A DNA stretch of 63,369 bases, the filler included, from an uncultured Methanosarcinales archaeon (GTDB lineage Archaea > Nanobdellota > Nanobdellia > Woesearchaeales > CAIVOO01): NCBI GenBank assembly GCA_964485195.1. It is 3 parts of 3 records of this genome, joined end to end, with 100 filler letters (N's around TTAATTAATTAA, not from the genome) between each part and the next. Parts side by side here need not be neighbours in the genome. Positions count along the whole stretch, not along the records: positions 1 to 31,454 come from CAZAIK010000005.1; 2 more parts are not named here. One strand, given 5' to 3'. This document shows positions 11,655 through 30,678 of this stretch, in pieces. The stretch's first letter is position 1. The number at the start of each line of letters is the position of its first letter. The translations under genes and the position numbers were made by a program. Below the pieces are notes generated by a model, which did no database searches, was not told the origin of the DNA, and saw nothing but the letters and a program-made list of their open reading frames with translations.

Positions 11655-14600
11655 ATGGCTGAAACCAGTAAAGGCAGATACGAGCACGAGAAAACTGAGC
11701 AGAAAATCCTGGATTATTGGGGAAAGAACAAAATCTATGAGAAGTCTGTTGAGAAGAACAAGAACGGCCCCAAGTACCGGTATCTTGACGGCCCCCCCTA
11801 CACCAGCGGAGCCATTCACCTGGGTCACGCCTGGGGAAAGGCCCTGAGAGATGCCAGCCTGAGATACAGGAGGATGAGGGGGCTGGACTGCTGGGACATT
11901 CCAGGATTTGACACCCACGGGCTTCCCATTGAGGTGGCAGTTGAGCAGAAGCTCGGGATAAGAGAGAAGCACGAAATTACTGAAAGGCTGGGGCTCAAAA
12001 AATTCATTGAGGAATGCCAGAAATTTGCCATTGAGCAGATGGAGCCCATGATAAAGGACTTCAAGAGAATAGGGGTGTGGCTGGACTGGGAAAATCCCTA
12101 CATCACTTTCAGGAATGAGTATATTGAAGGTGCCTGGTGGGCGTTGAAAAGGGCCCAGGAAAACGGCTTTCTCTATCTCGGGGAAAAGGCAATGACCTGG
12201 TGCCCGCGATGCGCAACAGCACTAGCAAAGCACGAGCTGGAATACTATCCTGTAACTGAAAATTCCATATTTGTAAAGCTAAAAGTCAAGGGGAAAGAGA
12301 ATGAATACCTGATAATATGGACCACGACTCCCTGGACAATCCCCTTCAATCTTGCGGTTATGGCAAATCCCGAGCTTGACTATGTAAGGGCAAAGGTTGA
12401 TGATGAAGTCTGGATTCTTGCAAAGGGAATGGCTCCTTCTGTTATCAGCGCAGTTGCAGGCAAGAAATACGAGATTCTTGAGGAGTTCAATGGGAAGGAG
12501 CTGGAAGGAACAGAATACGAGCCCTTGTTCAGGAACAAACTGCCTCTTTATGACGAGATAAAGAAGAAAAGTCCCAATGCATTCAAAGTCATACTATCAA
12601 AAGAGCACGTTTCACTCGGCTCAGGCTCCGGGCTGGTCCACTGCGCTCCCGGATGCGGCCCCGAGGACTATGAAGTGGGAAGGAAATACAAAATCCCGCC
12701 GTTCAACGAGCTGGACGAGCACGGGAAGGTGAAGGATTCCATGGGAGTCTTCTCAGGCCTTACTGCGAAGAAGGACGACAGGAAGTTCATTGAGATAATA
12801 AAGGAAACAGGAATGCTGATAGACACCGCGCCTGTTGAACACGATTATGCCCACTGCTGGAGATGCAAGACAGGAGTGATTTACAAGACAACAGACCAGT
12901 GGTTCCTCGCGGTGGAAAAGCTCAAGGAGGAGATGATTAAGGAGAACAACAAAGTTGATTGGGTCCCTGAATGGGGGGGCTTAAGATGGTTTGACTCCTG
13001 GCTCCGCGATTTGCAGGACTGGTGCATCTCAAGGCAGAGGTTCTGGGGAATACCCCTTCCCATATGGAAGTGCGAGAAATGCGGGGAAATAAGGTTAATT
13101 GAGAATAATGAGGAGATAAAAAAGCTGACAGGGAAGAAGCTTGACAATTTGCACAGGCCCTGGATTGATGAAGTAACTTTTGAATGCGAAAAGTGCAAGT
13201 CCAAAATGAAAAGGGTTCCTGATGTTCTTGATGTGTGGCTCGACTCAGGGGCAGCCACCTGGGCAGCCTGGAAAAACAGGAAGGACTGGGCGAAAATAAA
13301 AAGCGATTTCATTCTTGAGGGAAAGGACCAGATAAGGGGGTGGTTCAACTCATTAATCTGCCTTTCAATGGTCGCAAGAACAACAAATGCATACAAAGCA
13401 GTGTATATGCACGGCTTTGTCAACGACTCCCTGGGAAGAAAGATGTCCAAGTCCCTGAAAAACATTATTTCGCCTTATGAAGTGATAGACAAGTACGGCG
13501 CTGACACTATGAGGTATTACATGATAGGGGCTGCCAAGCCAGGAGTTGACATGAACTATAATTTTGAGGACATGAAGATAAAGTTCAGGAACCTTTCAGT
13601 GCTCTGGAACATACACAAGTTTTTGATTGACTTTTCTGAAACAAATGAGATAACAGATACCGTCCTGAACAGCAGGAACTTCGGAATTGAGGAAAAATAC
13701 ATCATCTCAAGGTTGAACAGCACAATAGCCAAAGTCACGGAGTTGTACGAGAATTACAGGCTGAACGAGGTTCCCGATGAGATAGAGAGGTTATTCCTGG
13801 ACCTGTCAAGGGCATACATACAAATGGTGAGGGAAAAATCAGTTTCAGGCACTGAAAAGGAGAAGCAGGCGATATTCGCAACGATCTACAGCGTTCTTTT
13901 GGAAAGTTTGAAAATGTTCTCAACAATCGCGCCGTTCGTATCAGAGGACATTTACCTCAGTTTAAGGGAGAAGTTCAAGATGAAGAAACCAAGCGTCTGC
14001 CTTTATTCCTGGCCCGAAGCTGACAGGAAAAAGATAGATGAGGGGCTGGAGCAGAACATGGACATTATGAGGGAAGTCCTGCAGGCGATTTATTCAGCAA
14101 GGGAAACTGCCCAGCTGGGGATAAGATGGCCGGTGAAGGACGTGACTGTCGTCACAGAGGACGAAAGCGTGAAAAAGGCTGTTGAAAGCCTGATGGAAAC
14201 AATAAAAAACCTTGCAAATGTGAATGACATAATAATCAAGGAGAGCATGGGACTGAAGAAACAGGTCAGGGCAGACTACAAAAGATTAGGTCCTGTTTTC
14301 GGGGAGAAAACCCCTTCCATAATAGCACAGCTGTCATTCAACTCGTCTGAAGCAATACTGGGAGGTATTGAAAGGGAGGGGAAGTTCTCAATGAAGATTG
14401 ACGGGGAGACAGTTGAGATACTGCCTGAATACCTCATAATAGAGAACCAGGTCCCTTCCCATCTTGCAGAGGCCCAGTTCAGGGGAGGCTATGTTTACCT
14501 CAACAAGGACAGGAACAAGGAGCTGGAGGCAGAGGGCTTTGCAAGGGAGCTCACGAGAAGGGTGCAGGCATTGAGAAAAAAGGCAGGAATGGTCAAGACA

Positions 14601-14792
14601 GACTCAATAGAGTTATTCATAAAGACAGACAGGGAAATGTCTGAAATGCTAAAGAAGTGGGAAAAAAGAGTAAAGGAAAAAACAGGAGCTGTCAGCATTG
14701 AGATAAGCCAGGACACTTCTGACAAGTATGACTTTGAGAGCAAGGAAAAGATTAAGGGAAGGGAATTTGTCCTGATGATAAACAAGGTGTAA
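11655..14792 (+). CDS. ileS: Isoleucyl-tRNA synthetase
   Basis: DGPPY, HLGH (HIGH), WTTTPWT, DWCISRQR, EGKDQIRGWF and KMSKS motifs. Confidence 0.97.
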   Translation: MAETSKGRYEHEKTEQKILDYWGKNKIYEKSVEKNKNGPKYRYLDGPPYTSGAIHLGHAWGKALRDASLRYRRMRGLDCWDIPGFDTHGLPIEVAVEQKLGIREKHEITERLGLKKFIEECQKFAIEQMEPMIKDFKRIGVWLDWENPYITFRNEYIEGAWWALKRAQENGFLYLGEKAMTWCPRCATALAKHELEYYPVTENSIFVKLKVKGKENEYLIIWTTTPWTIPFNLAVMANPELDYVRAKVDDEVWILAKGMAPSVISAVAGKKYEILEEFNGKELEGTEYEPLFRNKLPLYDEIKKKSPNAFKVILSKEHVSLGSGSGLVHCAPGCGPEDYEVGRKYKIPPFNELDEHGKVKDSMGVFSGLTAKKDDRKFIEIIKETGMLIDTAPVEHDYAHCWRCKTGVIYKTTDQWFLAVEKLKEEMIKENNKVDWVPEWGGLRWFDSWLRDLQDWCISRQRFWGIPLPIWKCEKCGEIRLIENNEEIKKLTGKKLDNLHRPWIDEVTFECEKCKSKMKRVPDVLDVWLDSGAATWAAWKNRKDWAKIKSDFILEGKDQIRGWFNSLICLSMVARTTNAYKAVYMHGFVNDSLGRKMSKSLKNIISPYEVIDKYGADTMRYYMIGAAKPGVDMNYNFEDMKIKFRNLSVLWNIHKFLIDFSETNEITDTVLNSRNFGIEEKYIISRLNSTIAKVTELYENYRLNEVPDEIERLFLDLSRAYIQMVREKSVSGTEKEKQAIFATIYSVLLESLKMFSTIAPFVSEDIYLSLREKFKMKKPSVCLYSWPEADRKKIDEGLEQNMDIMREVLQAIYSARETAQLGIRWPVKDVTVVTEDESVKKAVESLMETIKNLANVNDIIIKESMGLKKQVRADYKRLGPVFGEKTPSIIAQLSFNSSEAILGGIEREGKFSMKIDGETVEILPEYLIIENQVPSHLAEAQFRGGYVYLNKDRNKELEAEGFARELTRRVQALRKKAGMVKTDSIELFIKTDREMSEMLKKWEKRVKEKTGAVSIEISQDTSDKYDFESKEKIKGREFVLMINKV

Positions 14793-14793
14793 G

Positions 14794-15015
14794 ATGTATG
14801 AAAGACTAGTCTTGTATGACGGGGGGAATGGCAAAGAAAAAGATGTGCCCAGACCGGAAGTTCCCATTCCTTATAATGATGTATTCATTGACCCGCTGCA
14901 TCCTGAATGGGAAACAGAAGAGGAGGACTTGGATGACTTGCCCGGAGGACTGGAAGTAAAAATCAGGAAAAGGCCTCCTGAATGGCACAAGAATCCAAGC
15001 ATTTGGATAATATGA
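14794..15015 (+). CDS. Small acidic/Pro-rich hypothetical protein
   Basis: ATG 1 nt after the ileS stop; operonic packing. Confidence 0.55.
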   Translation: MYERLVLYDGGNGKEKDVPRPEVPIPYNDVFIDPLHPEWETEEEDLDDLPGGLEVKIRKRPPEWHKNPSIWII

Positions 15016-15146
15016 TGCAGCCATTGACCGGGTGGACATTTGTACAGCTTGCTGTTTACGTAATAGTATGGGTGTTGATATTCTGCATCGGCTACCTCAT
15101 TTTCGCGTGGTGGGCCAGGAGGAAAGCCGGAAAGAGAAACTATTAG
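15012..15146 (+). CDS. 44-aa single-TM small protein (missing from the ORF track)
   Basis: ATGA overlap with the upstream stop; MMQPLTGWTFVQLAVYVIVWVLIFCIGYLIFAWWARRKAGKRNY, a TM helix with a positive-inside tail. Confidence 0.65.
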   Translation: MMQPLTGWTFVQLAVYVIVWVLIFCIGYLIFAWWARRKAGKRNY

Positions 15147-15655
15147 TACTCAATGCCTTTTTTTGCAGGAATCTTCTTGTCTGAAGGGTGCTTTATCTGC
15201 CTTATTTCTGTTGCAAAATCAGCCCTGTCAATGAATTCCTGCGGGGCATACCTCCCCGTGAGGTATATTGTTGTTTTTTCATCTGCCTTGTCCAGCAAAC
15301 CAAGAACCTTCTGCTTGTCAACCAGCCCTGCAGAGGCAGCGATGTTAATTTCATCAAGAACTATAAGGTCAGGCTTTTCAGCAAGCTTTTTCCCGGCAAA
15401 CTCAAGGCCTTCCCCTGCCAGTCTTTTGTCCTCCTCAGAAGGATTTTCCAGGTCAACAAATCCCTTTCTTCCGAACTGGCGGATTTCATAGTTTTCACCA
15501 AGCTTTTCCTTCACCTTCACTTCGCCGGTCTCCTGGCCTTTCATGAACTGCACTATGACAACCTTATGCCCCCACCCAACGCTCCTCAGGGCCACACCTA
15601 ATGCTGATGTTGTCTTTCCAGCGCCAGTGCCTGTCCACAGGTAAACAAGAGCCAT
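15143..15655 (-). CDS. cobO: ATP:corrinoid adenosyltransferase (CobA/BtuR/CobO family)
   Basis: TGAGKTTSALG P-loop; VQFMKG, LDEIN, LTGR.AP and KKGIEY motifs. Confidence 0.92.
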   Translation of the reverse strand: MALVYLWTGTGAGKTTSALGVALRSVGWGHKVVIVQFMKGQETGEVKVKEKLGENYEIRQFGRKGFVDLENPSEEDKRLAGEGLEFAGKKLAEKPDLIVLDEINIAASAGLVDKQKVLGLLDKADEKTTIYLTGRYAPQEFIDRADFATEIRQIKHPSDKKIPAKKGIEY

Positions 15656-15743
15656 TTTCTATCTTGATTTTCCTTTATTTTTAATTCTTTCTCTTAAATT
15701 GTTGTCTAGCCTGGTTTTAGTTAAAAAAATAAATATTGAGTGG

Positions 15744-15915
15744 TTCCTGCATTAATTATCTTTTTTATCGTGCTTCACTTGCCTGACTGCCATGCAGGAA
15801 TTAAGAATATGTTGTGGAAGGCGAAAAAAAGAATGCTATAAGTTAAAAATGTTTTTAGGCGGCTCTGGCAATAGAGCTCTATGCAAAAGGCGATAAGCTG
15901 GTTTTAAGAGCCGCC
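15744..15915. repeat. Dispersed double-hairpin element family 2, copy A
   Basis: Stems TTCCTGCAT/ATGCAGGAA and GGCGGCTCT/AGAGCCGCC; colinear with 30421-30588. Confidence 0.8.
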
Positions 15916-15960
15916 ATAATAAAATTTATTTTTTAGAGTCCTAAATTAATTTTTCAAATA

Positions 15961-18039
15961 TCAGTAGTTGCAGAAGTCCGTGGGGCAGCCGCCGGAGAAG
16001 TCCGAATGCGCTGTCACCCTTTCCTCCTCGTTTATGTCCCTTGTGATTTCCGACCCGCTGTACAGCACCTGCTCTTTCCTTGATCCGTACCTGTAAATTG
16101 TAATGCCCTTGCATCCCAGCTGATAAGCCAGCAAATATGCCTTTTTCACCTCTTCCACCGTGGCATCGTGGGGGAGGTTGATTGTTTTTGACACTGCATT
16201 GTCCACGCTTTTCTGGAAAACAGCCTGCATCCTCACGTGCCATTCGGGCGGAATGTCCAGGGCTGTCTTGAAGATTTTCTTAACGTCGTCAGGAACCTCT
16301 TTCAAATCCTGGACAGATCCTGTCCTGGTAATCTTACTAATCAGCTCTTCTGAATAAAACCCTTTTTCCCTTGCAATTTCCTCAAACTCCCTGTTTGTTT
16401 CCACCAGCTGCGAGCCTCCGAGGACGTTTCTTACAAAAGAGACTGCAAACAGCGGCTCTATTCCTGAAGTGCATCCCGCAATTATGCTTATCGTTCCTGT
16501 GGGGGCGATTGTTGTGACAGTCGCATTTCTCATATTCTTGTAATGCCCTGCCAGCCTGCTCTTCTTGAACGCGGGAAAATTCCCCTTTTCCTCCCCCAGT
16601 TTTTCAGATGTTTTCTTGGCTTCCCTTTCTATGAATTCCATAACTCTTTTTCCTGTGTCCAGAGCATTCTCTGAATCGTAAGGGATTCCGAGTTTTATGA
16701 GCATTTCCGCAAATCCCATCGCTCCCAGGCCTATCCTCCTGTTTTTCCTGGTCATCTTCCTGATTTCAGGAAGCACATACTTGTTGATGTCTATTACACT
16801 GTCAAGGAACCTTACTGCCAGGTGAACTGTTTTTTTCAGCCTGACCCAGTTTATTTCATTCTTTTCATTGACAAAGTTAGCGAGATTGATGGAGCCGAGG
16901 TTGCACGATTCATAGGGGTGCAATGGCTGCTCACCGCAGGGGTTGGTGCTTTCTATTCTTCCGACATTGGGTGTTGGGTTTGAGCGGTTTACCCTGTCTA
17001 TGAACACCATCCCCGGATCGCCCGTGCGCCAGGCGCTTGAGACCATCATATTGAACAAGTCCTCAGCGTTTTTCCTTCCCTCTGGTTTTTTCGTCCTGGG
17101 ATTGGTTAATTCAATCTCCTTGCCCTTCTCGACATAATGCATGAACTTGTCAGAGGCTGCCACAGAAATGTTGAAATTGTTCAAAAAGCCCTCTTTTGTC
17201 TTGCAGGTGATGAACTCAACAACGTCGGGATGTTCTGCTTGAAGGACGCCCATATTGGCTCCTCTCCTTTTTCCCCCCTGCTTGATAACCTCTGTTGTCT
17301 CGTTGAAGATTCTCATAAAGGAAACAGGCCCTGAAGCAACTCCTTTTGTGGACTTTACAATGTCGCCCTTGGGCCTTAGCTTTGAGAATGAAAATCCGGT
17401 GCCTCCCCCGCTCTGGTGTATCAGCGCCATTGTCTTTACAGCGTCAAAAATGCTTTCCAGGGAGTCTTCAACAGGAATCACGAAACAGGCTGACAACTGC
17501 CCCAGCTTGGTGCCGGCATTCATCAGCGTGGGGCTGTTGGGCATGAAATCCCTCTTCACCATCATCTTGTAATAATCATCTTCATATTTTCTGTCAACAT
17601 CCACTGCCTTTGCAACCCTCCTGAAAAGCTGGGCAGGCGTCTCCATTATATCCCCTTTTTCATCCCTGAGCAGGTACCGGGCAGACAAGACCTTCATCGC
17701 GTTTAGTGAGAATTTCAGCTCGTCCTCTCCGAACAGCCTCTTGGCCTTTCTTATTTCCTGGCGCTTGTGCCTGTAAAGTATGTAAGCCTTGGCGACATCA
17801 GGCAGGTTGTGCTTGATAAGGATGCGCTCAACAGTGTCCTGAATTGTCTCAATATGAATTTTTTCCTTTCTTGACTTTTTTATTGAAGCAACAACATCCT
17901 TAGCCAGGATATTTGCAAGGTTTTTGTCTTCCTTTCCCACTGCTGCAAGAGCCTTGAGAATTGCTTCCCTTATTTTGGAAGAGTCAAACTTTACAGGCTT
18001 TCCGTCCCTTTTTATTACCTTTATCTCGCCTCCCGCCAT
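15961..18039 (-). CDS. nrdJ: Class II (adenosylcobalamin-dependent) ribonucleotide reductase with N-terminal ATP cone
   Basis: VIKRDG ATP cone; [38 protein letters not shown] and VSKTIN motifs; C-terminal Cys pair; next to cobO with no beta-subunit gene nearby. Confidence 0.9.
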
Positions 18040-18083
18040 ATTTTAACAGAAAGGCTATTTATTTAAAAAACTTGTCTATAAGG

Positions 18084-18533
18084 TCACGTCTGCTCTATAT
18101 CAAAAGCATTCCACTGCTCTGCCGTGTTAATCTCCACTGTTTCCACGAATTTTTCCCTTGGCTTTATGTTCTCTATCAGGATTGTTTTGTTGATTACCTG
18201 TTTTCTGGCGTAATACAACGTCACGGTGATTTTGGCGTTCCCGCCGAATGTTTCCTTGTTTATGAAAGTCGCGTTGATGACTGCACGGCCGGGCTTTTTG
18301 TATGCCCCCCTCTCCCTTATTTCAAGCGAGACTTCTTTTTCTTCATCTGCGCCAGTTTCATCTTCAGGGATTACTTCTTCAACAGAAGGCGCTTCTGCAG
18401 GCTCTTCCCTTTCAATAATCTCGCTTATCTTCTGCGGGACATAAAGATGCCAGCCAAAACCTATCATAAACGTTGCCAGTATGAGAATTGCCACCAAGAC
18501 CACAAGGAAGATTGCCCGCTTCATATTAATCAT
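18084..18533 (-). CDS. Membrane-anchored protein with a small Ig-like domain
   Basis: N-terminal TM, acidic linker, beta-rich C-terminus; overlaps the upstream stop. Confidence 0.65.
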   Translation of the reverse strand: MINMKRAIFLVVLVAILILATFMIGFGWHLYVPQKISEIIEREEPAEAPSVEEVIPEDETGADEEKEVSLEIRERGAYKKPGRAVINATFINKETFGGNAKITVTLYYARKQVINKTILIENIKPREKFVETVEINTAEQWNAFDIEQT

Positions 18534-21500
18534 TGTCTCCTTTGTTTTTAAATATTTTTCTTCTTATCTCAAAGAATGTTACAGCTATGACCGCTACTAG
18601 AGTTATTATCATAACAGCCCAGGGCCAGTAGTTTTCATCCTCAGTAACTTTCCCTAGCTCCTTGGGCTGCTCCACAACTGGCTCTTCCTCCTGCTCCTCT
18701 TCAGTTACATTCCCTTCTGTGACAGCAACCTCTTCCTCCTCTTCAAAAGTTTCCTGCGTTGGCGGGACAAGCACTCCGCCGCCACCACCTGTTCCTCCGC
18801 CGCCTCCTGAGGGAGGAGGTGTTGGAGAAGGGGCTGTATAGGATTCCATTACCCCTGAATGGGCAAATCCTGAAACAGTGAATGTGTCATTTGTGACAGT
18901 GCATTGATAATTGCCGCTTGTTCCTGGACAGCTCAGTTTTGTGCAGTTGGCAGTCAGGGTTGAAAGCAGGAAATCCTTCTCATCAAGATAGCACACGGAA
19001 TTGCTGGACTGGTTGTTCCGCTCAAGATAAAGTGTTTTTGTCCCGTTAATGTTAAGGTTTCTTATTGAAATGTAATTGTTCGTCCCGTTCTTTCCTTTTT
19101 CTATTGAAACATTAACAAGGTTCAAGGACGATGAATTGAAATCCAGTGAAAAATTCACGAACAAAGTGCCGTTGTCATAAAACCTTACCTGCCTGGAGCC
19201 GTTGTATTGATTGTTCAAGTTTTCTGTGCCGTCTACGGTAATGTTCAGGTTGAAAGAAACATTAACATTGGTGAGGTTTCCTATGACGCTGTCGCAGGCG
19301 TCCCCTATTGAGTCATTGTCCAGGTCCTGCTGCGATGGATTGGACTTGAAAGGGCAGTTGTCCCTGAACAAAACCTTGTCAAAGTCCACATCAGCATATG
19401 AGTTTGTGTTTTGAATGTTGCCCCTGTACTGCGGCCATTCTGCCAGGGAGCTGTTGTAGGTTGAATTCAAGTCCCAGACCACAAGGGTTCCGCCGTTGTA
19501 GACTGCTTCGGGCCAGCGGTCTGTGAAATAAGCTGAAAGCGCTATCAGTTCCGCATCCCCGTCATTGTCAAGGTCTGCAATCAGGGGGGCTGATTCCTGA
19601 ATCCTGGAACGGTTGAAATAAGGATATCCAACTGTTGGATTGAAAGGATATCCAGGGGTAACTTGTCCCGTATCCAAATCGTAAGAATACACCCTTGACT
19701 CTGTGCCCATTCCTCCGTACAGCTGATGCCCGCTAACCAGCATTTCGTGTTTTGAATCGCCGTCAACATCCCCCATTGTGGGCCTGTGGTATATCTCATT
19801 GTATGGAATGTCCACAGGGAAGTTGGGAAAGTCCGAGCCGTTGCCCCTATATACTGAGATGTTTGCCCCTGTCTGTCCCCCGAACAGGAAGGGGATTGCT
19901 ATTATTTCAAGAATGTTGTCGCCGTCAAGATCTCCTGCGGCAAGGTTGGTAATCCACACCCCTCCAGAGCCCACAGGCCACCCTTCCACTGCTGAACTGT
20001 TATGGTGCAATGCCATCAACCCAGTCCCCCTTTTGTAAAAGACTATCTCCAGGTCCATATCCCCATCCAGATCTGCCATTGCTGTATAGAACACTTCACC
20101 GCCGCTGATGTTGTAGGGCCAGTTGGGCATTACAGAGCCGTTATGCCCATACAGGTATAGCATGTCAGTATTGACTGATGCTATAAGAATCTCTCCATAG
20201 CCATCCTTATCCACGTCGCCCATTACCGGGTAGGGGGTAAAATAAGTGTTTCTAAGATGACTGTCAGGAGATTTCCATTTCAAGGTGCCGTTATGCTCAT
20301 AGACAAACAAGTTATAGCCAGAAGAGAATGCCACTTCCAGATAACCGTCGTTGTCAATGTCATAAACCGAGGGATATGATTCCAGCAATGTTGCTGATAT
20401 GGTGACTGGCCAGCTGTCCATAATGGAGCCGTTGTGGTGCCTTACAATTATGGTATGCCTGTCTGTGTCAAGATATATTATTTCCAGGTCGCCGTCATTA
20501 TCCATATCACCTATTGTTACGCTTTTCCCCCACACGTGAGCGCTGGTCGGCTGTGGCCATCCTTCCATAATGCTTCCGTTATAGTGGAAGATGTAAACAC
20601 TCCGGTTTAAACTGGCCATTGAGCCGTCTCCGCTGTATATATAAGGGGAGTAAGAAGTTGCAACTATTATTTCAAGGTCGCCGTCATTGTCAACATCCGC
20701 AACCTTCGGGCTGGTGAAGGGAGTCCAGTCAAGCTGCTGTGGCCAGCCGTCCTGCAGCATCTTGTCCACCCTCAGGACAATTGATTTGTGAAATGGGGTG
20801 CTGGAATTTCCTATATGGATAGTAAGATTGATTGTGTAATTCCCATCAGGCAGACTGGTTGAATTGAAGAATCCCAGGGTGCCGTTCGTGATTGTGGTTT
20901 CAGAAAAGTTAATCAGGGTCCAGCTGGCATCGTTAACATTCCTGTACTGGATGGTGTAATTTTCAAAAGTCAGGTTTTCCGTCAGCGCCCTGCCTGTTAT
21001 TCCTGCTCCATCCTTGACTAATATGCCGCTGTCTGGCTTCGTAACCTCATAGTTATTAACATCCTTGATAAGATAGTCATAGCTTGTGGAGTTCTGCCCG
21101 TGAACTGCAAGCCTTAAGACGTGCTCTCCCTCCCCCGCACTTCTTGTGTCCCAGACAAAAAGGAGAGATTCGTTCTTTTGGGCGTTTGAGTGGTTAAGGG
21201 TTTTCCATATGCTGGTGCCTGTGGCGCTTCCCTCGTATGCTATGAAAAGGTCAGAAAAAACCAGGGTGCCGTTTGTGGAATTTATTATTATGGGGACTGT
21301 GCAGTTTCCTGCTGAATCTGCCGGGCAGAACTCCAGAAAATTGTTCAGTTCTGAGGCAAATCCGTAGGAGAAAGTCTCTGAATGGTTGAAGTAAAAGTTT
21401 CTTATGAGCCTGAATGCCATGTCATTGTACAAATGGCCCGACGGCCAGGTTGCTCCCCAGTCTGAAGAGAACCTTATCCTTCCATCTGGATAATCAGTGG

Positions 21501-23607
21501 AAGCACGGTACCACCTGTAAGAGCCTGCGTCCCTTGTTTTCAGCTTGACAATGAGCCAGTATATCCCTGATGATAGGTTCAGGTTGTTTGTTTTTGACAA
21601 TGTCCATCCCGGGCTTGCTGAAATGTTCTCAGCAGGCATTGTCTTATTATACTCAACATTTCCGCTTGGCCTGTCAAAACCGGACTGGTCTGTTTGTATC
21701 TCTACTAAAATTCCATCCCCGCTGTTTGACTTTTCCAGGAACAGGCTTATCCCTTCCACTTCTCCTCCTGACCAGTTGAACTTCTGGGCCACGCTTTCAT
21801 TCCCTTGTATGTTGTACGAGTTAGCTGATTCGCCTGTCCTTATTCCTGAAAATCCTTCCCAGTCTAAATCCCCGTCGCCTCCCACGTCAATTCGCGGGGA
21901 GTAAGGATAGGTGTTGGAATTGTTAAGGCCTTTTATTGACATCTGGGCTTCAGCTATGTCCACAAGTTTTGGGATGGTTAGGTAAAGTGTTTTTACTTCC
22001 TCTCCTGAGAAACTTTTGTTAGTAACATTAAGCAGGCCGCCCCCCTCTGTTGGGAAATGTGTTATGTTTCCCGAACTGGCAGATATTGCGGTGCTCAAGC
22101 TTATTGTGTAATTTATGAAATTGTCGCATAAAGCTGTCCCGTTCAAGGTGATAATTCCGGACACTTCCTTTGTTATGTTGTAGGTGTAAAACTCTGCAGT
22201 GCAGGGCCTGGAGGACAGGTTTACAGCTGCCAATGCATTTACCCTGCCGTGCCCCTGCGACGTCAGCTCAAATCCCACATCCTCAGCAGTATTTCGCAAT
22301 GCCATCTTGACATCAATGGGAGTCCAGTTCTTGTGCATCTGAAGCATTAATGCAGAAACCCCGGAAACGTGGGGAGCTGCCATGCTTGTTCCTGAAATTG
22401 CAGTGTGCTCGCTATCATAGCATTGATAGCTGCTCCAGGCATTGTTCCACTGCGCAGAGCATATGGAAAATCCAGGGGCAAGCACGTCCGGCTTTATTGT
22501 TCCTATGCCTGTCGGCCCTCTTGAGCTGAAGGAGGCAATTCCATCAGACTTTGTTGAAGCTCCCGCAGTTATCGCCTTTCGTGAAGCGCCCGGAGAGTTG
22601 ATTGTGCCCTCTACAGGGCCGTTGTTTCCCGCAGATATCACAACAACCATTCCTGCATTGACAGCGTTGTCTGCAGCCAATGATAAGGTGGAGTCAGGGC
22701 CTCCGCTTCCTCCCAGGCTCATGCTCAGAATGCTGTAATTGTTTGCCGCGGCATCGTCCATAGCGGCGAGAATGTCGCTGCTGGGGCATCCGCCGCTGGA
22801 ACTGCAAACCTTGTAAGCAACTATCCTGGCGTCGGAGGCCACTCCTTTCAAGGTTCCGTTTCCTGCTGCAATGCCCGCCACGTGGGTTCCGTGGCCTTTG
22901 TCATCCATAGGGTCGTTGTCGTTATTGTAAAAATCATAGCCTCCAATCACCTTGGCGCAATTGCCGGCCAGGAAGGTGTCATTTGAGCAGCTTCCGAAAT
23001 CCGTGTGGCTGTAGTCCACTCCTGTATCTGCTATTGCTATTGTTATGTTCTGGCCAGTGACATACCTTCCGTCCTCATCTGTCAAGAGCCAGGTCAGGTT
23101 GGCCTTGATGAGGGGCACAGAATCATCCAGGGTGATGTTGTATATCCTGGAAGGCGAAACCTTTTTGACATAAGGGAGGCTTTCTATCTCAAGGGATTCA
23201 TAAAGAGTTGCATTAACTGCCATTCCGTTGAATATGTATTTGTATTCCTTCAGGACAAAATCTTCAGAACCTGACTGGGTTTGAAATTCGTCCTTTCCCA
23301 ATATTCCAGCGATGTCCTGCTTCGCCATATCGTGCTGCTCATTTATCCTGTCCATACTTTGCTGGCTTTGAACGCTGTATTCAAAAAAAGCAGGCTCTTT
23401 TAATTCCACGATATGGACCTTTTTTTCATACTGGGAAAATGCCGCTTTTATCTCTTCAGGGGTTTGCTCATCCCCAAAAGCTTCTTGTTCAAGAACTGCC
23501 TTAGAGGTTACCTTTTCCAAGTCCCTTCCTGAAAAGTCAGTTATCAGGACTAAAGAAACTACAGCAATTATGAGCAAGAATAAAAATGCCAGGTTTGACT
23601 GCCTCAT
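18526..23607 (-). CDS. Cell-surface S8 subtilase with FG-GAP repeats, TSP3-like repeat and C-terminal TM
   Basis: Catalytic DTGVD, HGTHVAG and GTSMAAPHV; multiple DxDxDGxxE repeats; DNCP..SNP.Q.D.DND.IGDACD; Gly/Pro linker and TM. Confidence 0.9.
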   Translation of the reverse strand: MRQSNLAFLFLLIIAVVSLVLITDFSGRDLEKVTSKAVLEQEAFGDEQTPEEIKAAFSQYEKKVHIVELKEPAFFEYSVQSQQSMDRINEQHDMAKQDIAGILGKDEFQTQSGSEDFVLKEYKYIFNGMAVNATLYESLEIESLPYVKKVSPSRIYNITLDDSVPLIKANLTWLLTDEDGRYVTGQNITIAIADTGVDYSHTDFGSCSNDTFLAGNCAKVIGGYDFYNNDNDPMDDKGHGTHVAGIAAGNGTLKGVASDARIVAYKVCSSSGGCPSSDILAAMDDAAANNYSILSMSLGGSGGPDSTLSLAADNAVNAGMVVVISAGNNGPVEGTINSPGASRKAITAGASTKSDGIASFSSRGPTGIGTIKPDVLAPGFSICSAQWNNAWSSYQCYDSEHTAISGTSMAAPHVSGVSALMLQMHKNWTPIDVKMALRNTAEDVGFELTSQGHGRVNALAAVNLSSRPCTAEFYTYNITKEVSGIITLNGTALCDNFINYTISLSTAISASSGNITHFPTEGGGLLNVTNKSFSGEEVKTLYLTIPKLVDIAEAQMSIKGLNNSNTYPYSPRIDVGGDGDLDWEGFSGIRTGESANSYNIQGNESVAQKFNWSGGEVEGISLFLEKSNSGDGILVEIQTDQSGFDRPSGNVEYNKTMPAENISASPGWTLSKTNNLNLSSGIYWLIVKLKTRDAGSYRWYRASTDYPDGRIRFSSDWGATWPSGHLYNDMAFRLIRNFYFNHSETFSYGFASELNNFLEFCPADSAGNCTVPIIINSTNGTLVFSDLFIAYEGSATGTSIWKTLNHSNAQKNESLLFVWDTRSAGEGEHVLRLAVHGQNSTSYDYLIKDVNNYEVTKPDSGILVKDGAGITGRALTENLTFENYTIQYRNVNDASWTLINFSETTITNGTLGFFNSTSLPDGNYTINLTIHIGNSSTPFHKSIVLRVDKMLQDGWPQQLDWTPFTSPKVADVDNDGDLEIIVATSYSPYIYSGDGSMASLNRSVYIFHYNGSIMEGWPQPTSAHVWGKSVTIGDMDNDGDLEIIYLDTDRHTIIVRHHNGSIMDSWPVTISATLLESYPSVYDIDNDGYLEVAFSSGYNLFVYEHNGTLKWKSPDSHLRNTYFTPYPVMGDVDKDGYGEILIASVNTDMLYLYGHNGSVMPNWPYNISGGEVFYTAMADLDGDMDLEIVFYKRGTGLMALHHNSSAVEGWPVGSGGVWITNLAAGDLDGDNILEIIAIPFLFGGQTGANISVYRGNGSDFPNFPVDIPYNEIYHRPTMGDVDGDSKHEMLVSGHQLYGGMGTESRVYSYDLDTGQVTPGYPFNPTVGYPYFNRSRIQESAPLIADLDNDGDAELIALSAYFTDRWPEAVYNGGTLVVWDLNSTYNSSLAEWPQYRGNIQNTNSYADVDFDKVLFRDNCPFKSNPSQQDLDNDSIGDACDSVIGNLTNVNVSFNLNITVDGTENLNNQYNGSRQVRFYDNGTLFVNFSLDFNSSSLNLVNVSIEKGKNGTNNYISIRNLNINGTKTLYLERNNQSSNSVCYLDEKDFLLSTLTANCTKLSCPGTSGNYQCTVTNDTFTVSGFAHSGVMESYTAPSPTPPPSGGGGGTGGGGGVLVPPTQETFEEEEEVAVTEGNVTEEEQEEEPVVEQPKELGKVTEDENYWPWAVMIITLVAVIAVTFFEIRRKIFKNKGDND

Positions 23608-26600
23608 TTACCATTATTCTTCTTTTTTGGAATCTTGGGTTTTTTATAATATTCATAAAGTATTATTCCCACTACTAACAGGGCAATTACCGCTACGGTA
23701 ACTGGCATAACCCATCTTGGCAGTGACGGTTCAACCTCAGGCGCGGGTTTTTCCACAACAGGCGGTGCAGGCGAAGGCTCTTCTTCTGCTGGCACTTCCT
23801 CTTCTGGTTCGGCAGGCACAATTTCCTCAGTCACATTCTTAGTGACGTTCCTTTCAAAGGAGCCTATAGTTGGGGGGAGGTTCACGCTTGTTCCCCCTCC
23901 TCCAGTCTTCTTTGCTTTTGTTGATATTGTGAAACTGAATGTTCCTGTGAAGTGCGTTCCATTAATCCTGGAGCCCTCAATCCAGGGGATTATGTTAACC
24001 TTGTAATTTCCTGTGGCAGTGGGCCAGTTGTCTATGGAAACTGTTGAAGCAGAGCTTTTCTTTGTAGCCACGAGCGCGCCGCTCGCGTTATTGTAAACCT
24101 CGTAATTCACAGGCACAGAAGCGTCCTGCCTGTTCCAGCTGATGGAGTCGATGAAGCTGCCGGTTGTGAGGCTTACCTGTCCGCAGTCCCCTGAAGCTGG
24201 GGTCAGGCTTTCCTCATAGAAATTACCCTGATTTCCCACGCAGTAGCTGGTGTTTGTGCCGCTGTCATTCACTCCCTGGGATATGAAAGCGTTGTTCCAC
24301 AATGTTGTAAAATTAGATCCGTTGATTAAAAGGTCGTAAGCAGTGCCCTTAAGTATGTTTCCGGAGATATTTGACAGGTTGGAATTATAAACCTGAAGTG
24401 CGTAGGATGCGTTGCTTATGTTGGCGCTGCTTAAGCTTAACCCTTGCGAATTTTTTACAAAAATTCCAAAGCCTGTGTTGGAAAAGCTGTTTCCATTGAT
24501 GTTCCTAACACTGCTCCCAAGGGTAGCGTTTTCCACTAGAATGGCATAGTCCAGGTTCTCAAACATATTGTTCAAGGCGTTGGAAAAGCTTGAATTGCTT
24601 ATTAATATGCCGGTGGTGGAGTTTGCAAAGTAATTGTCCTCTACTGATATGCCTTCCTTGGAGGAGTTTATCAAGACTGTTGATATGTTTATGAAATCGT
24701 TGTTTTTCAGGTTTATGCTGCCGTTCTGAAGTTTCAGGATGCTTATTCCTGAATTGAGCACTGTGTTGTTCTCTATTGACAATGTTCCGCTCGCATCGTG
24801 GACAGAATAAAAACCTCCTGCCTTAAGAGTAATCCCAAAAGAGGTAAGGTCTGTATAGCCTGATATGACATTGTCGTGGATGATGTTATCTCCTTCTGCA
24901 GAAATGAAGCAATTAGCAGAATTGTTGAAAATCCTGGTGTTACGGCCGTCCGTGATGACGGTCGCGATAAAGCAGTTGTTAAAGCTGTTGTTGTAGATAA
25001 AGCTGTCATTGGCCTCATTGCTGATTCTTATGGTTCCCCACCCGTGGTACATATTATTAAAAACATTGTTTGAAATGTTAAGATTCCTGACGTAACCAGC
25101 AGATATGAGAAACAGGCTAAAGCTGTTGTTGAAAAAGCTGTTGGTAATGGTGATGTTTTCACTATAACCTGACGGGCCAAAAAGCTCACTAAAATGACGT
25201 ATCAAGGTCCTGTTGCCAAGCTCCCCTGAATCAGTTATGTTATCAAATGTTAAGTTATGGACATTGTTCCACCTAATGTCTGTAGAATAAAATGTGGAAT
25301 CTTTAATAAGGATATTTCTTGAAAGGCTATTAATGTATATGCCCCTGTCAGGCCCCGTTAAGTTAACATTTTCAATTAAAAGCCCATCTGTGTACTTGTT
25401 AATATAGATGTTGCTGTAAAGGCTTCCCCCATAGGATTCGTTGGAATTCCATATTGTAATGTTCCTTAATGTTGTGTTGGTTGCGTTCCAGACTATGAGT
25501 CCCCTGAAATAGTCTGAAATCCTGCAGTTCTGAACCGTGGTGTTGGCTGCCGCGCCGCTAGAGGGTGAGCCTACGGAGATGGCATTCCCTCCCTTGTTAG
25601 TCACACCGTATAAATAGGAGTTGTTGCAGTCAAGCACCAAGTCCTGGGAACCTGGAGGAACTTCCACTAATTCATCTGCATAATCATCTGTGCACAGTGT
25701 CTCTTTCTTTATCAGGGAAGCATCAATAGTATAGCTGGTGCCTGAAACCTTTGTCAGGTTAATGCAGGAGAACGCAACATCATATGTGTCATTTTGTCTT
25801 GAGTGCGTGTCCTGCACAGTTGAGTTGCCAGTCACGGTGTAAAGGTATGTGCCGTTGTATGTTGTCATGCTATTATTAGTGTATTCCCACACTCCTGTTG
25901 CTGAGTTATAGCCCATATCGTGAGTGCCTCCCAGAGATTCAAAGTCAATGGTAACATTAGCTTCAGAGTCGTTAATGGAGTGTCCTGTTGAGTTGGTGAA
26001 GTTGGCGTAAAATGTTATGTTGTCCGCACGGAGAATGGTTGCGGTGTCTGAGCTGTCCCTGATGAGAAGAGGGGCGTTAAACTGCAGTATTCCGTAAGTG
26101 CTGCTTGGCTGTAGACTGCTGATTGTTAACTTGTTGTTTGCAGTGTCGAGCGTTGCTCCTGTGTCAAAGCTGCCTGAGCTGTTCCAGACCCACAATTCAA
26201 AAAAGCTCTCATAATATCCTGATAGTTCCGCGTCATTCCACTTCCATTCAGCTGACTCTATTGTCGGGCTTCCTGATGTCTCAATCTTAATGAACTTGTT
26301 TTCAAAGCTGGCGTAGACTGACGGAATAGCTGGCGGGGATGACCAGTTAATGTAATATTCATCGCCTGCTCCCCCCGCATTGTCATCAATGCCCAGCACA
26401 GTATAATTGATTAATGTTCCTGCCGGGTTGAGGAAGTAATTGTTGGTGAGGTTATAGATGAAAGGGCGGGAGATGTAGTTGATTGAAACATCCTTCTTAT
26501 TGTTGTAAAACCTGTTGCCTGTCAACAGGGAGCTGTTGGCATCCTCCACTTCAACACCTATGCCCCCTGAGCCCGCATTGCCAAAGATTGAGTTATTAAC

Positions 26601-27743
26601 CAGAACGCTGTGGTTGCTTGACCATAATGAGATTCCTGCCCAGCTATTGCTGTGAGCAGAATTGTTAACCAGGGAAGTGCTCACGCTTGAATCTATTCCA
26701 AATCCTGCGCTTCCGCTTCCGTATGCCGTGTTGTCTTCCAGACTGCCTTCATAGGATGAAAGTATGTAAAATGCTTCGTTCGTAATGTTATATGCCACAT
26801 TGTTTGTTAATGATGCGTTGTTAACAGCTTCAACATAAAACCCATAAGATGAGTTATAAGCAGTGTTGTTCACAAGCGTATTGTTTTCTGAATTGCCTAT
26901 GAAAACCCCGTAACTGCTGTTGTATGCAGTGTTATTGATTAAATTGTTATTGTTTGACCTGTTGATAAAAATACTGATTTGATGACCGTAAAACACATTA
27001 TCCTGCAAAGTATTATCATAATCGGCTGGTGTAAAGGCGGCGTATCCTGTCCGGGTATTGTTGTAAATTGTGTTGTTTATGTAAAGGGAATTTGCAGAAT
27101 TCCACAAGAAAATGCCGTCGTAATTATTAAAAATCCTGTTGTTCATTAAAGTGTTATTAGCTGTTGGATCTCCAAAAAAATAGAATCCATTGGCTGTGTT
27201 ATTGAATACCACATTACCTGCATAAGAGCAATTCACCGGATTATCGTTGTGGATTCCGTCATTTGAATTAATGTATGCAGAATTATTGGCAAAGGTAGAG
27301 TTGAAACATTCGTCTGTTTTGAAACCGTGACCTGTGTTATTAAACGCTGTGTTGTCCGCAAGCAAGCTGTGGTTTAAGTTGGTAATATAGACTCCATCGT
27401 TGAATTCTCTCACATTGCAGTTCCTTACAGTGATGTTCTCTTTCCCAGACGCGATTATCCCGTCTTCTGAAGTTGGGGTGAGGCTTTCATTAAAGGTAAT
27501 CCAGTAACCCTGGCAGTCAAGAGTGACATTTGACGTGTTTATTATCAGCCCATCAGATGAGCAGTTGGTTATGTTTCCCGCAAGAATGCTGTCCTCATTC
27601 ACATAAGCCCCGCAGTCTGCAGGAGTATTGTCCCCATAAGATGCAAATCCTGTGAGGCTGGGGCCAAAATAAGCTAAAACCCCTATAAGCACAGCGAGAA
27701 CAACAAGGGATATTGTTATAGTGACATTCCTGTTAGCACTCAA
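23604..27743 (-). CDS. Large surface protein with NosD-like parallel beta-helix repeats
   Basis: Repeated NN.L.NNTA.N...G units; N- and C-terminal hydrophobic helices; TTG start. Confidence 0.8.
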   Translation of the reverse strand: MSANRNVTITISLVVLAVLIGVLAYFGPSLTGFASYGDNTPADCGAYVNEDSILAGNITNCSSDGLIINTSNVTLDCQGYWITFNESLTPTSEDGIIASGKENITVRNCNVREFNDGVYITNLNHSLLADNTAFNNTGHGFKTDECFNSTFANNSAYINSNDGIHNDNPVNCSYAGNVVFNNTANGFYFFGDPTANNTLMNNRIFNNYDGIFLWNSANSLYINNTIYNNTRTGYAAFTPADYDNTLQDNVFYGHQISIFINRSNNNNLINNTAYNSSYGVFIGNSENNTLVNNTAYNSSYGFYVEAVNNASLTNNVAYNITNEAFYILSSYEGSLEDNTAYGSGSAGFGIDSSVSTSLVNNSAHSNSWAGISLWSSNHSVLVNNSIFGNAGSGGIGVEVEDANSSLLTGNRFYNNKKDVSINYISRPFIYNLTNNYFLNPAGTLINYTVLGIDDNAGGAGDEYYINWSSPPAIPSVYASFENKFIKIETSGSPTIESAEWKWNDAELSGYYESFFELWVWNSSGSFDTGATLDTANNKLTISSLQPSSTYGILQFNAPLLIRDSSDTATILRADNITFYANFTNSTGHSINDSEANVTIDFESLGGTHDMGYNSATGVWEYTNNSMTTYNGTYLYTVTGNSTVQDTHSRQNDTYDVAFSCINLTKVSGTSYTIDASLIKKETLCTDDYADELVEVPPGSQDLVLDCNNSYLYGVTNKGGNAISVGSPSSGAAANTTVQNCRISDYFRGLIVWNATNTTLRNITIWNSNESYGGSLYSNIYINKYTDGLLIENVNLTGPDRGIYINSLSRNILIKDSTFYSTDIRWNNVHNLTFDNITDSGELGNRTLIRHFSELFGPSGYSENITITNSFFNNSFSLFLISAGYVRNLNISNNVFNNMYHGWGTIRISNEANDSFIYNNSFNNCFIATVITDGRNTRIFNNSANCFISAEGDNIIHDNVISGYTDLTSFGITLKAGGFYSVHDASGTLSIENNTVLNSGISILKLQNGSINLKNNDFINISTVLINSSKEGISVEDNYFANSTTGILISNSSFSNALNNMFENLDYAILVENATLGSSVRNINGNSFSNTGFGIFVKNSQGLSLSSANISNASYALQVYNSNLSNISGNILKGTAYDLLINGSNFTTLWNNAFISQGVNDSGTNTSYCVGNQGNFYEESLTPASGDCGQVSLTTGSFIDSISWNRQDASVPVNYEVYNNASGALVATKKSSASTVSIDNWPTATGNYKVNIIPWIEGSRINGTHFTGTFSFTISTKAKKTGGGGTSVNLPPTIGSFERNVTKNVTEEIVPAEPEEEVPAEEEPSPAPPVVEKPAPEVEPSLPRWVMPVTVAVIALLVVGIILYEYYKKPKIPKKKNNGK

Positions 27744-27848
27744 ATTTAAAACACCTCTGCAGAGTAGAAAGAGTCTTTTGGTTTATAAAACTTTCTGATT
27801 CTGCCAAAACCAAAAACTTATTAATTTTACTACCTTGCTGGAATTAAA

Positions 27849-28673
27849 ATGACTGGGGATTTGGGCAGACGGAAACTCTTGATGATGCTGGCAGGAAGCG
27901 CCGGTTTAATGATTCCAGGGATTGCAAACAGCGAGTTCTCAGCAAAGGACTGCACAAATGCAGGCGGAAAATGGCTGGAGGAAAGGAAAAAATGCCTTGT
28001 TGACATGTCAATGGAAGTTGAGCTTCCTGATGCAGAAATAAAGCCCCATCCTGAAGAGGACAGGATAGCTGTCTACAGCCCCCTTGAAGTTTACACAGAA
28101 GAAAGCCTGCCCAGGCTTGACAAAAAACCGGTAAAGCAGAGAAGGTCCAGAGTCAGGCCTTCAAGAAAGACTGATTATGATTCTGTGGATGAAATCCTTG
28201 CAGGCATTGTGGGGGGAGAAGGATGCTTTACAAGAATTGGGGGAAGGTTTGGTGACAGGAGGAAAACGCACACTCATCACGGAGTTGATATTTACGCCAG
28301 CAAAGGGTGTTCTGTCCGCACCCCCCTTTCCGGAAGGGTCAGGAAAATAGGCTATGACGGGAAGCCCCCTGAAGGAGGGCTGTACATAATACTTGAGCAC
28401 GAGATAGAAGGGATGCCCCCGCACATCTCCCCTGAGTTTCACACAGTTTACATGCATCTTAACGCATCCAGCCCGGGCGACAGGAGCAAGGTTTATGTTG
28501 AAATTGGTGATTTTGTAAGGCAGGGGCAGCAGATTGCTGAGGCAGGCAGGACAGGGATTTACAGGTCAAAAACCCATTTGCATTTTGAGGTCAGGGAGAA
28601 AAGAGGAAAGTATTTCGCTCCTGTTGACCCTGAGGAATTCTTCAAAAATTTAAAGAACCACAACCTGATTTAA
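27849..28673 (+). CDS. M23-family Zn metallopeptidase with a twin-Arg-like signal peptide
   Basis: HHGVD (HxxxD), YMHL, HLHFE (HxH) and PVDP motifs; N-terminal GRRKLL plus hydrophobic stretch. Confidence 0.9.
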   Translation: MTGDLGRRKLLMMLAGSAGLMIPGIANSEFSAKDCTNAGGKWLEERKKCLVDMSMEVELPDAEIKPHPEEDRIAVYSPLEVYTEESLPRLDKKPVKQRRSRVRPSRKTDYDSVDEILAGIVGGEGCFTRIGGRFGDRRKTHTHHGVDIYASKGCSVRTPLSGRVRKIGYDGKPPEGGLYIILEHEIEGMPPHISPEFHTVYMHLNASSPGDRSKVYVEIGDFVRQGQQIAEAGRTGIYRSKTHLHFEVREKRGKYFAPVDPEEFFKNLKNHNLI

Positions 28674-28674
28674 T

Positions 28675-29397: not shown

Positions 29398-29496
29398 AAA
29401 AATGGGATGGCTCACCCTTTTATATTTCTTTCTGGAATTTTTTTAGTACTTCACAATAACGAAAAGTTTTTAAATCAGTCTATTTTAAAAAGAAGC

Positions 29497-30375: not shown

Positions 30376-30420
30376 TGATTATGATTGTAAAAATTTATTT
30401 AATTAAGAACAAACAGATAC

Positions 30421-30588
30421 TTCCTGCATTAGCCTTTATTCTTTTATTGCTTCACCTGCAGCATTGCCATGCAGGGATAAAAAGGATTTGTGGAAGGCAA
30501 CATCAACTGCCACCCATAATTTCATTCTTAAGCAGCTCCGGCAGGGGGGCAGGATAAGAAAATTCAGGCAGCAAATTTAAGAGCTGCC
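30421..30588. repeat. Dispersed double-hairpin element family 2, copy B
   Basis: Stems TTCCTGCAT/ATGCAGGGA and GCAGCTC/GAGCTGC, with the same arm spacing as copy A. Confidence 0.8.
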
Positions 30589-30678
30589 ATTAACAAATTA
30601 TTTTATTTTTATTCAAATCCGGGTTTATGCAGAATTTTTTAGGCAAAAGTTATAAACTCCGATTGATGATTAATATGT

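Follow-up and report, generated by a model that had tools for sequence, protein, structure and literature searches.

The question raised by this stretch of DNA is what a pair of matching double-hairpin sequences represents in the genome of an uncultured archaeon (GTDB lineage Archaea; Nanobdellota; Nanobdellia; Woesearchaeales; CAIVOO01; GenBank assembly GCA_964485195.1). The window, by which we mean the whole stretch analysed (63,369 nucleotides, filler included), carries one of them at 15744-15915 (copy A) and the other at 30421-30588 (copy B), and a sequence-only reading had proposed that they are either a novel structured non-coding RNA or a non-autonomous mobile palindromic element. Both lie on contig C5, which corresponds to window positions 1-31454 only, the remainder of the window being N or another contig. 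We conclude that copies A and B are not a lone pair but members of a genus-restricted family of non-coding intergenic repeats of ~200 nt. The two genomes that carry the argument are that of the window copies themselves (G000; 1.13 Mb in 32 contigs, 99.5% complete) and the sole congeneric genome compared (G001; 1.3 Mb, 98% complete).

The likeness between the two copies holds in detail. All of the sequence blocks on which it had been based are found in both copies and in identical order, and the geometry is fixed as described: the arms of stem 1 start 48 nt apart in each copy (15744/15792 in copy A, 30421/30469 in copy B) and those of stem 2 start 49 nt apart (15859/15908 and 30532/30581). Stem 1 of copy A pairs TTCCTGCAT at 15744-15752 with ATGCAGGAA at 15792-15800, and its counterpart in copy B has its arms at 30421-30429 and 30469-30477. 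The core of stem 2 pairs GCGGCTC (15859-15865) with GAGCCGC (15908-15914) in copy A and GCAGCTC (30532-30538) with GAGCTGC (30581-30587) in copy B, which confirms the compensatory change from G-C to A-T. The extent originally given to the element needs correction, in that it covers the core only; the whole element reaches ~20 nt further on each side as an outer stem.

An iterative profile search, the check that the sequence-only reading had called for, recovered many more copies from G000, with E values down to 1e-34. It proceeded from a hidden Markov model of three copies to one of 11 copies and then to a covariance model, R1, built on an alignment (A3) of the 11 full G000 copies, with cut-offs of E <=1 in G000 and E <=0.001 in G001 and stricter filters for 61 related genomes. 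A third close copy was found on G000 contig C8. R1 gave 29 matches in G000, or 21 loci once 8 reverse-strand duplicates were removed (11 of them full copies scoring 120-150 bits, the other 10 weaker or partial), and 82 matches in G001, or ~72 loci after removal of 10 such duplicates, so that copy number is ~3.5-fold higher in G001. Matches on the reverse strand come from the likeness of hairpin 2 to hairpin 1 read as its reverse complement, which makes the element quasi-palindromic.

R1 matched nothing in five other genomes of the same taxonomic family, and among the 61 related genomes four had a match, namely G000, G001 and two with weak ones (E 0.004 and 0.009). A weak R1 match of 25 bits in G012, a genome of another family in the same order (L036:1501-1643, minus strand), keeps a clean hairpin 2 (CAGCTCTGGCAAT ... 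AAAGAGCT) and part of hairpin 1, and is perhaps distantly related to the family although outside the genus. A specific hairpin-1 pattern retrieved 25 metagenome contigs, all 25 of which R1 also matches, and their flanks show 66-81% identity to G000 or G001; the contigs therefore come from further species of the same clade. The same pattern had no match among viral contigs, and of the 99 viral matches to a loose hairpin-2 pattern R1 confirmed none of the 80 for which sequence was retrieved. The Rfam scan that had been suggested agrees with the element being new to that database: no family matched at its gathering threshold, and relaxing the search to E values up to 10 returned only noise. Full-text searching of the literature gave no description of the family; the MITE (miniature inverted-repeat transposable element) sequence lists in the supplements of PMC11602168, which that search did not cover, may include it. 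A protein-coding reading was rejected by eye on the conserved TAA/TTA in the blocks and on loop indels that are not multiples of three.

One strand of the element, the plus strand in both window copies, is predicted to fold as a closed four-helix junction of ~200 nt in which an A/U-rich outer stem encloses hairpin 1, then a central hairpin that varies between copies, and finally hairpin 2. In copy A the A-rich 5' arm of the outer stem (P0; TAAAAAAATAAATATTGAGTGG, 15722-15743) pairs with the T-rich 3' flank, the 3' arm with its T-run (ATAATAAAATTTATTTTTTAG) lying at 15916-15936; the computed duplex, on flanks slightly wider than these, has 28 pairs and -13.7 kcal/mol. The A/T-rich outer stem of copy B (5' arm 30387-30405, 3' arm with T-runs 30595-30613) is weak, at 13 pairs and -4.4 kcal/mol. 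Hairpin 1 (15744-15800 in copy A, with a 9-bp stem; 30421-30477 in copy B) has the form TTCYTGCAT/ATGCARGAA around a 39-nt pyrimidine-rich loop that contains GCTTCTTCTGC and ends in TGCC. An AATATTA spacer follows, and then the central hairpin, which is short, free in sequence and variable in length, its loop being GAA in 18 of the 32 short-form copies among 61 aligned. Spacer and central arm together form the length-variable part of the element (15801-15857 in copy A, with TTGTGGAAGGC at 15812-15822; 30478-30531 in copy B, with TTGTGGAAGGC at 30488-30498). TTAA separates the central hairpin from hairpin 2, in which GCAGNNCT/AGNNCTGC enclose a purine-rich loop of ~40 nt that starts with GGCAAT and carries GCAAGAAGC; in copy A it spans 15858-15915 (9-bp stem 15858-15866/15907-15915, 40-nt loop) and in copy B 30532-30587. 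These placements, all on the plus strand, draw on the sequence and RNAalifold for hairpin 1 (and, for copy A, on the larger alignment A4 described below), on sequence and covariation for hairpin 2, on alignments for the central parts (with the sequence itself in copy B) and on duplex calculations for the outer stem, together with the sequence for its 3' arms.

Across the G001 copies, conservation begins at AAAATCCCGTTTGCTGG before hairpin 1 and stops at CCAGAAAACGGGATTTT after hairpin 2, and these consensus ends are complementary over ~17 bp, in the manner of terminal inverted repeats. A conserved G-A mismatch within the outer stem means that the ends are not strictly symmetric.

Evidence of covariation backs three of the helices, namely the central hairpin, hairpin 2 and the outer stem. 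Among the 11 G000 copies, both sides change in 6 of 9 pairs of hairpin 2. In A4 (57 rows, comprising 55 copies and 2 reverse-strand rows) 92.6% of cells are paired and both sides change in 18 of 21 pairs; none of 500 shuffles reached the observed value on any of five measures, and slid controls paired at 34-47%. An unguided mutual-information calculation placed its top pairs in hairpin 2 and the central hairpin, with no loop-to-loop pair among them. Applied to the 61 copies aligned without the model, RNAalifold recovered hairpins 1 and 2 and, between them, a central hairpin of 6 bp that covaries heavily; 14 of its 22 predicted pairs covary. It missed the outer stem, as the ends of the copies are not in register column by column, and support for this helix comes instead from per-copy duplex calculations, in which arms paired better with a copy's own flanks (-8.45 kcal/mol) than with those of other copies (-7.45 kcal/mol; 66 copies, permutation p 0.006). 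Hairpin 1 is almost invariant (96.9% of its cells in A4 are paired), with clear covariation at a single pair, which is U-A or C-G.

The same kind of comparison does not favour contacts between loops. The pseudoknot suggested between CTTCAC and GTGGAAG is not borne out, loop 1 pairing no better with a copy's own central loop than with those of other copies (-1.23 against -1.22 kcal/mol, permutation p 0.46; the 32 short-form copies of the 61). Nor was there copy-specific pairing between loops 1 and 2 in the 11 copies compared (own -21.5, non-own -20.8 kcal/mol, permutation p 0.26); these loops are complementary at the level of the family only.

Two calculations point to the plus strand as the one that folds. 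Counts of G-U type pairs exceed those of A-C type mismatches, at 54 against 26 for the three inner helices (an outermost position that rarely pairs being set aside) and 36 against 24 for the outer stem, counted in the 31 copies, of 66, whose arms pair ungapped; over all helices the totals are 90 and 50 (p 0.0009). In addition, 46 of 72 copies are predicted to fold more stably as the plus strand (p 0.002), the mean difference being -2.8 kcal/mol. This strand preference does not separate RNA from single-stranded DNA as the folded molecule, since G-T is also the mildest mismatch in DNA.

Another way to view the family is through the sites that it occupies in the two species. At the G001 site orthologous to that of copy B, the upstream gene's stop codon directly abuts the conserved promoter region of its downstream neighbour, and the ~268 bp that are missing correspond to window 30376-30644 (plus strand), that is, to copy B together with its A/T-rich ends. 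The site of copy A in G001 (L065:2016-2398) likewise holds no element; two small minus-strand open reading frames (ORFs) lie there between the cobO-like and ribonucleotide reductase genes. These two ORFs look like membrane peptides. Viewed from the other genome, none of the 14 G001 copies with 1.5-kb flanks has a partner at the matching G000 site, and two of these sites are cleanly empty, with gaps of 67 bp against 305 bp and of 30 bp against 264 bp. When 30 loci with 400-bp flanks are added, 4-5 of the 44 share their position with a G000 copy (C8:8554, C9:20378, a degenerate copy at C7:3133, and C4:93173). Copies that do share a position across species align through the element, and the adjoining spacer does not; several G001 copies are also co-located with metagenome relatives, the BLAST alignments continuing through the element. 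Some copies lack the 3' half. Since most sites are not common to both species, and copies A and B are themselves missing from G001, we conclude that, since the two species diverged, many sites have acquired or lost the element, which is therefore mobile, or was so in the past, after the fashion of MITEs or of repetitive extragenic palindromic (REP) sequences. The mobile half of the original proposal is thus upheld by multiple copies in one genus, presence and absence at orthologous sites, and ends like terminal inverted repeats.

We next consider how old copies have diverged. Maximum pairwise identity is 0.856 among 44 G001 copies (0.827 by pairwise alignment) and 0.695 among the 11 G000 copies, with means of 0.70 and 0.59. 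Conserved columns were defined on the G000 copies alone (49 of 152), and differences were then counted between nearest neighbours in G001. In 41 such pairs, neighbours differed at 9.2% of the 49 conserved columns and at 28.3% of the other 103 (Fisher p 5e-69), and pairwise alignments, which avoid artefacts of alignment to the model, gave 9.5% and 24.8% (34 pairs). Over 20 base pairs in each of the 41 comparisons, 683 were unchanged; one-sided changes kept pairing in 37 cases and lost it in 36, and double changes kept it in 18 and lost it in 4. Pairing was therefore kept in 18 of 22 double changes, against an expectation of 6 in 16 (p 3e-5). The 41 pairs overlap in their members, which makes these p-values too small; the effect itself is large. 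As old copies keep the same columns fixed and their stems are repaired by paired changes, this is not simple decay after a burst, and the family is not decaying junk, each inserted copy apparently being under constraint. Either selection acts on each copy, or some process restores the conserved columns only. Covariation in the helices and constraint on single copies together bear out the claim that the element is structured.

All 20 G000 loci examined are intergenic, the element almost filling its spacer. Copy A is antisense to both neighbours, as had been stated: a CobA/CobO/BtuR adenosyltransferase gene (PF02572, E 2e-52) and a gene for a ribonucleotide reductase large subunit of nrdJ type (PF02867, E 1.4e-146), both on the minus strand. 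Copy B is sense to its neighbours, two plus-strand ORFs in which no Pfam match was found. Of 69 copies from three sources whose flanks are long enough, 64 lie between two ORFs, and these comprise 24 convergent, 19 tandem-sense, 12 tandem-antisense and 9 divergent arrangements (against 1:2:1, chi-square p 0.03), the upstream gene being co-oriented with the element in 43 of the 64 (p 0.008). Judged by eye on the alignment, 10 of 11 G000 copies have a T-run after the 3' arm, and all 11 have an A-run ahead of the 5' arm; these runs are the arms of the outer stem and would appear as T-runs to a transcript coming in from either side.

Our preferred explanation, on which we feel ourselves about evenly divided between belief and doubt, is that the family is a mobile non-autonomous structured repeat of MITE or REP-like kind that folds from the plus strand and is constrained at each locus, perhaps as a transcript 3'-end module. 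We infer that RNA is its working form, that it has a 3'-end role and that it has a protein partner. The folded single strand would be recognised by a putative protein that moves the element, uses it, or does both. Read-through from an upstream gene would place the fold and its T-run at the end of the transcript as a 3'-end, terminator or stabiliser module, and one that could be used from either side, since the element is quasi-palindromic. The complementary invariant motifs of the two large loops (GCUUCUU/AAGAAGC and UGCC/GGCA) could lock hairpins 1 and 2 together, a suggestion that stands on complementarity because covariation cannot test invariant columns, and the invariant loops might be where the putative protein recognises the element.

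Several observations weigh against this explanation. Those bearing on mobility begin with the sites shared by G000 and G001, where the partners are not nearest relatives (identity 0.60, rank 16 of 54, and 0.59, rank 37 of 54), so that an apparently shared site may have arisen by repeated insertion or by gene conversion. Comparison of filled and empty sites at copy B, L041 and L047 gave no callable target duplication amid A/T-rich ends and flank identity of ~70%. No excision variant was found for window 14000-31454 among assembled contigs (three DNA runs, likely source samples), in which contigs bridge both copies and no joint skips either. A search for sequencing runs containing window 14800-17000 returned only these three DNA runs, all of one study and two of them possibly the source of this DNA, and no RNA run. 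Neither G000 nor G001 contains near-identical copies, and, with no excision variant either, mobility at present is only a possibility. As to a mobilising enzyme, no Y1/RAYT gene (PF01797) was found in G000 or G001, with the control positive in 6 of 14 reference genomes; rve and reverse transcriptase (RVT_1) genes are absent from both, other transposase families not having been scanned; and TnpB (PF07282) gave one sub-threshold match of 17.4 bits in the scan of the two genomes, IscB not being included. Two DDE_Tnp_1 genes of IS4/IS5 type occur in G001 only (C24:86610-87134 and C27:74486-75016), and the end motifs of the element are not found around them, leaving no sequence link. For the 3'-end role, one third of copies are not co-oriented with the upstream gene and 9 lie between divergent genes, so such a role is impossible for all copies. 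Finally, the G-U excess rests largely on two positions, and kinship among copies means that the p-values overstate independence.

The enzyme searches left some observations that stand by themselves. The scans of G000 and G001 found no insertion sequence (IS) with ends matching those of the element, so that identification as known IS ends, which had been raised as a way in which the proposal could fail, did not come about. Each of the two genomes has one tyrosine recombinase, not tied to the element. In G000 the first 58 residues of an IS110-like (DEDD) ORF run off the end of a contig (C21:3972-4147; L247:1456-1631); the fragment scores 24.1 bits for PF01548, below the cut-off of 29, and G001 has none. 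The 200 nt upstream of this ORF are non-coding and could accommodate a bridge-type RNA, and R1 does not match there.

The nature of the fold invites the alternative that the copies are stand-alone structured RNA genes, a new RNA class with its own promoters that would act in a ribonucleoprotein (RNP) and would duplicate and move like archaeal C/D small RNAs (sRNAs) or the HEARO and omega RNAs, with specificity supplied by the free-sequence central hairpin, by variable stretches of the loops or by the middle of stem 2. Four covarying helices with invariant unpaired motifs, constraint on each copy, the plus-strand bias in G-U pairs and folding energy, the T-run after the 3' arm and the lack of a fixed orientation to neighbouring genes all speak for it, and the complementary conserved loop motifs suggest a compact tertiary fold. 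Nevertheless, we hold this view to be doubtful. There is no promoter at a fixed distance, the information directly upstream of the outer stem being ~0-1 bit, and if the A-run of the 5' arm were taken as a TATA box, the usual archaeal TATA-to-start spacing of ~25 nt would place the start inside hairpin 1. Restriction to one genus, the unequal copy numbers of the two species and the many truncated copies also count against it, as do the lack of an Rfam match and of a partner such as TnpB over threshold. A bolder form, which strikes us as rather improbable, would make the family a new class of structured RNA in the DPANN archaea, cloverleaf-like and ~200 nt long, with 20-70 dispersed genes per genome that are selected at each locus, spread in a mobile-like fashion and serve as guide or scaffold for a putative RNP, much as HEARO RNAs proved to do; if true, the central arm or the variable loop stretches would give copy-specific specificity.

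At the other extreme, the family could be a purely selfish MITE, its stems and motifs needed by a putative transposase or recombinase acting on folded single-stranded DNA and its conservation due to lineage selection and gene conversion. The outer stem with its likeness to terminal inverted repeats, the size, the intergenic spread, presence and absence at orthologous sites and truncated copies all fit this picture; a stem-2 5' arm of one type combined with a 3' arm of another, read by eye, suggests recombination between copies; and G001 copies resemble one another more than they do their positional partners in G000. A Woesearchaea genome is, moreover, reported to rank among the archaeal genomes densest in MITEs, at 105 per Mb (PMC11602168). 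We nonetheless think the selfish account unlikely. It offers no recent burst, the closest pair of copies being 86% identical, and every copy has therefore had time to decay; nearest neighbours differ threefold less at conserved columns, and their changes preserve pairing; gene conversion would homogenise the variable columns too, yet these stay variable; and no partner element with the same ends was found among the scanned families. The neighbourhood of copy A, with its genes for a B12 adenosyltransferase and a ribonucleotide reductase, is the one consideration in favour of a locus-specific cis-regulator such as a cobalamin-responsive leader at nrdJ/cobO, an idea to which we attach next to no credence. 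No cobalamin riboswitch or other cis-regulatory Rfam family matched, even at E values up to 10, copy A is antisense to both of its neighbours, and the same site in G001 has no element. The distribution of copies contradicts it as well, with ~19 other G000 loci beside unrelated genes, and the adenosylcobalamin link that had been raised falls with it.

Among known systems, bacterial REP elements, with the related bacterial interspersed mosaic elements (BIMEs) and REPINs, are mobilised by RAYT (TnpA-REP). They are numerous intergenic one-strand hairpins that keep their fold while the letters change, are lineage-specific and turn over between sites in different species; they are enriched at the 3' ends of genes and between convergent genes, and roles at transcript 3' ends have been proposed for them. 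The family shares their intergenic copies, a one-strand fold kept despite sequence change, enrichment towards gene 3' ends and convergent neighbours, lineage restriction and site turnover. It differs in being ~200 nt long with four helices and large conserved loops, where a REP is a palindrome of 20-40 nt or a doublet of these, and in having no Y1/RAYT gene, no cloud of identical copies around a master sequence, and an archaeal host. With prokaryotic MITEs (Correia/NEMIS, ERIC, Sulfolobus SM) it has in common a length of 150-270 bp, complementary ends, non-coding and intergenic copies, presence and absence at sites, and truncation, and a high density of such repeats is also described for a Woesearchaea genome; unlike them, it has no parent IS with the same ends that we could find, its copies are old yet conserved at specific columns, and its internal helices covary. 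The element thus works most like a REP/BIME or a MITE, yet lacks two defining features of each: RAYT and a short palindrome in the former, a parent IS and near-identical copies in the latter.

Structured RNAs that travel with mobile DNA provide a further comparison. The HEARO/IscB and TnpB omega RNAs and the IS110 bridge RNA are multi-helix RNAs of ~150-250 nt present in many copies, and the IS110 bridge RNA has two hairpins with large internal loops. The family resembles them in its multiple helices, length and copy number, but no copy abuts a nuclease or recombinase gene, no TnpB passes threshold and Rfam offers no match; for IS110, the sub-threshold fragment is found in G000 only, and G001, the genome richest in copies, has none. 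Archaeal H/ACA sRNAs likewise have two hairpins with large internal unpaired regions and multiple paralogues. Here, however, the only trace in Rfam is snR42 on the minus strand, whose 15.6 bits fall short of the gathering score of 61, and the top mutual-information pairs, judged by eye, include no covariation-supported upper stem within the loops.

Two further features deserve mention. G001 has 20 sites of a second, smaller twin-hairpin module of ~52-56 nt with the junction motif TTTCTGCGCGCAGAAA, and G000 has none. Thirteen of the 20 are inside copies of the family, in or beside the central hairpin and with a varying insertion point (for example L088:401-607 and L094:401-621), and 4 more are within ~60 nt of a family copy. 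The outer arms of the module (GCAAGAA and TTCTTGC) are matched in the hairpin-1 stem. Because the junction is identical in 14 of the 20 sites, the module looks younger than the copies that host it, and from its positions it seems to target them. Elsewhere in the window, a tRNA match on the plus strand at 40547-40677 (RF00005, 41.7 bits) stretches over 131 nt for a model of 71 positions, and this tRNA gene therefore probably contains an intron.

The significance of the family lies in where it is found. The tiny genomes of DPANN archaea are under strong compaction, and a repeat that fills up to ~1% of such a genome needs explaining. Small palindromic repeats in these organisms are usually dismissed as junk, and the family provides a testable case, in which old and scattered copies retain an intricate four-helix fold with invariant loop motifs and no known transposase that handles hairpins was found in the two genomes. 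If its fold acts as RNA, it would represent an unrecognised RNA family or a portable archaeal transcript-end module; if it acts as DNA, it would imply an undescribed archaeal enzyme that moves folded single-stranded DNA.

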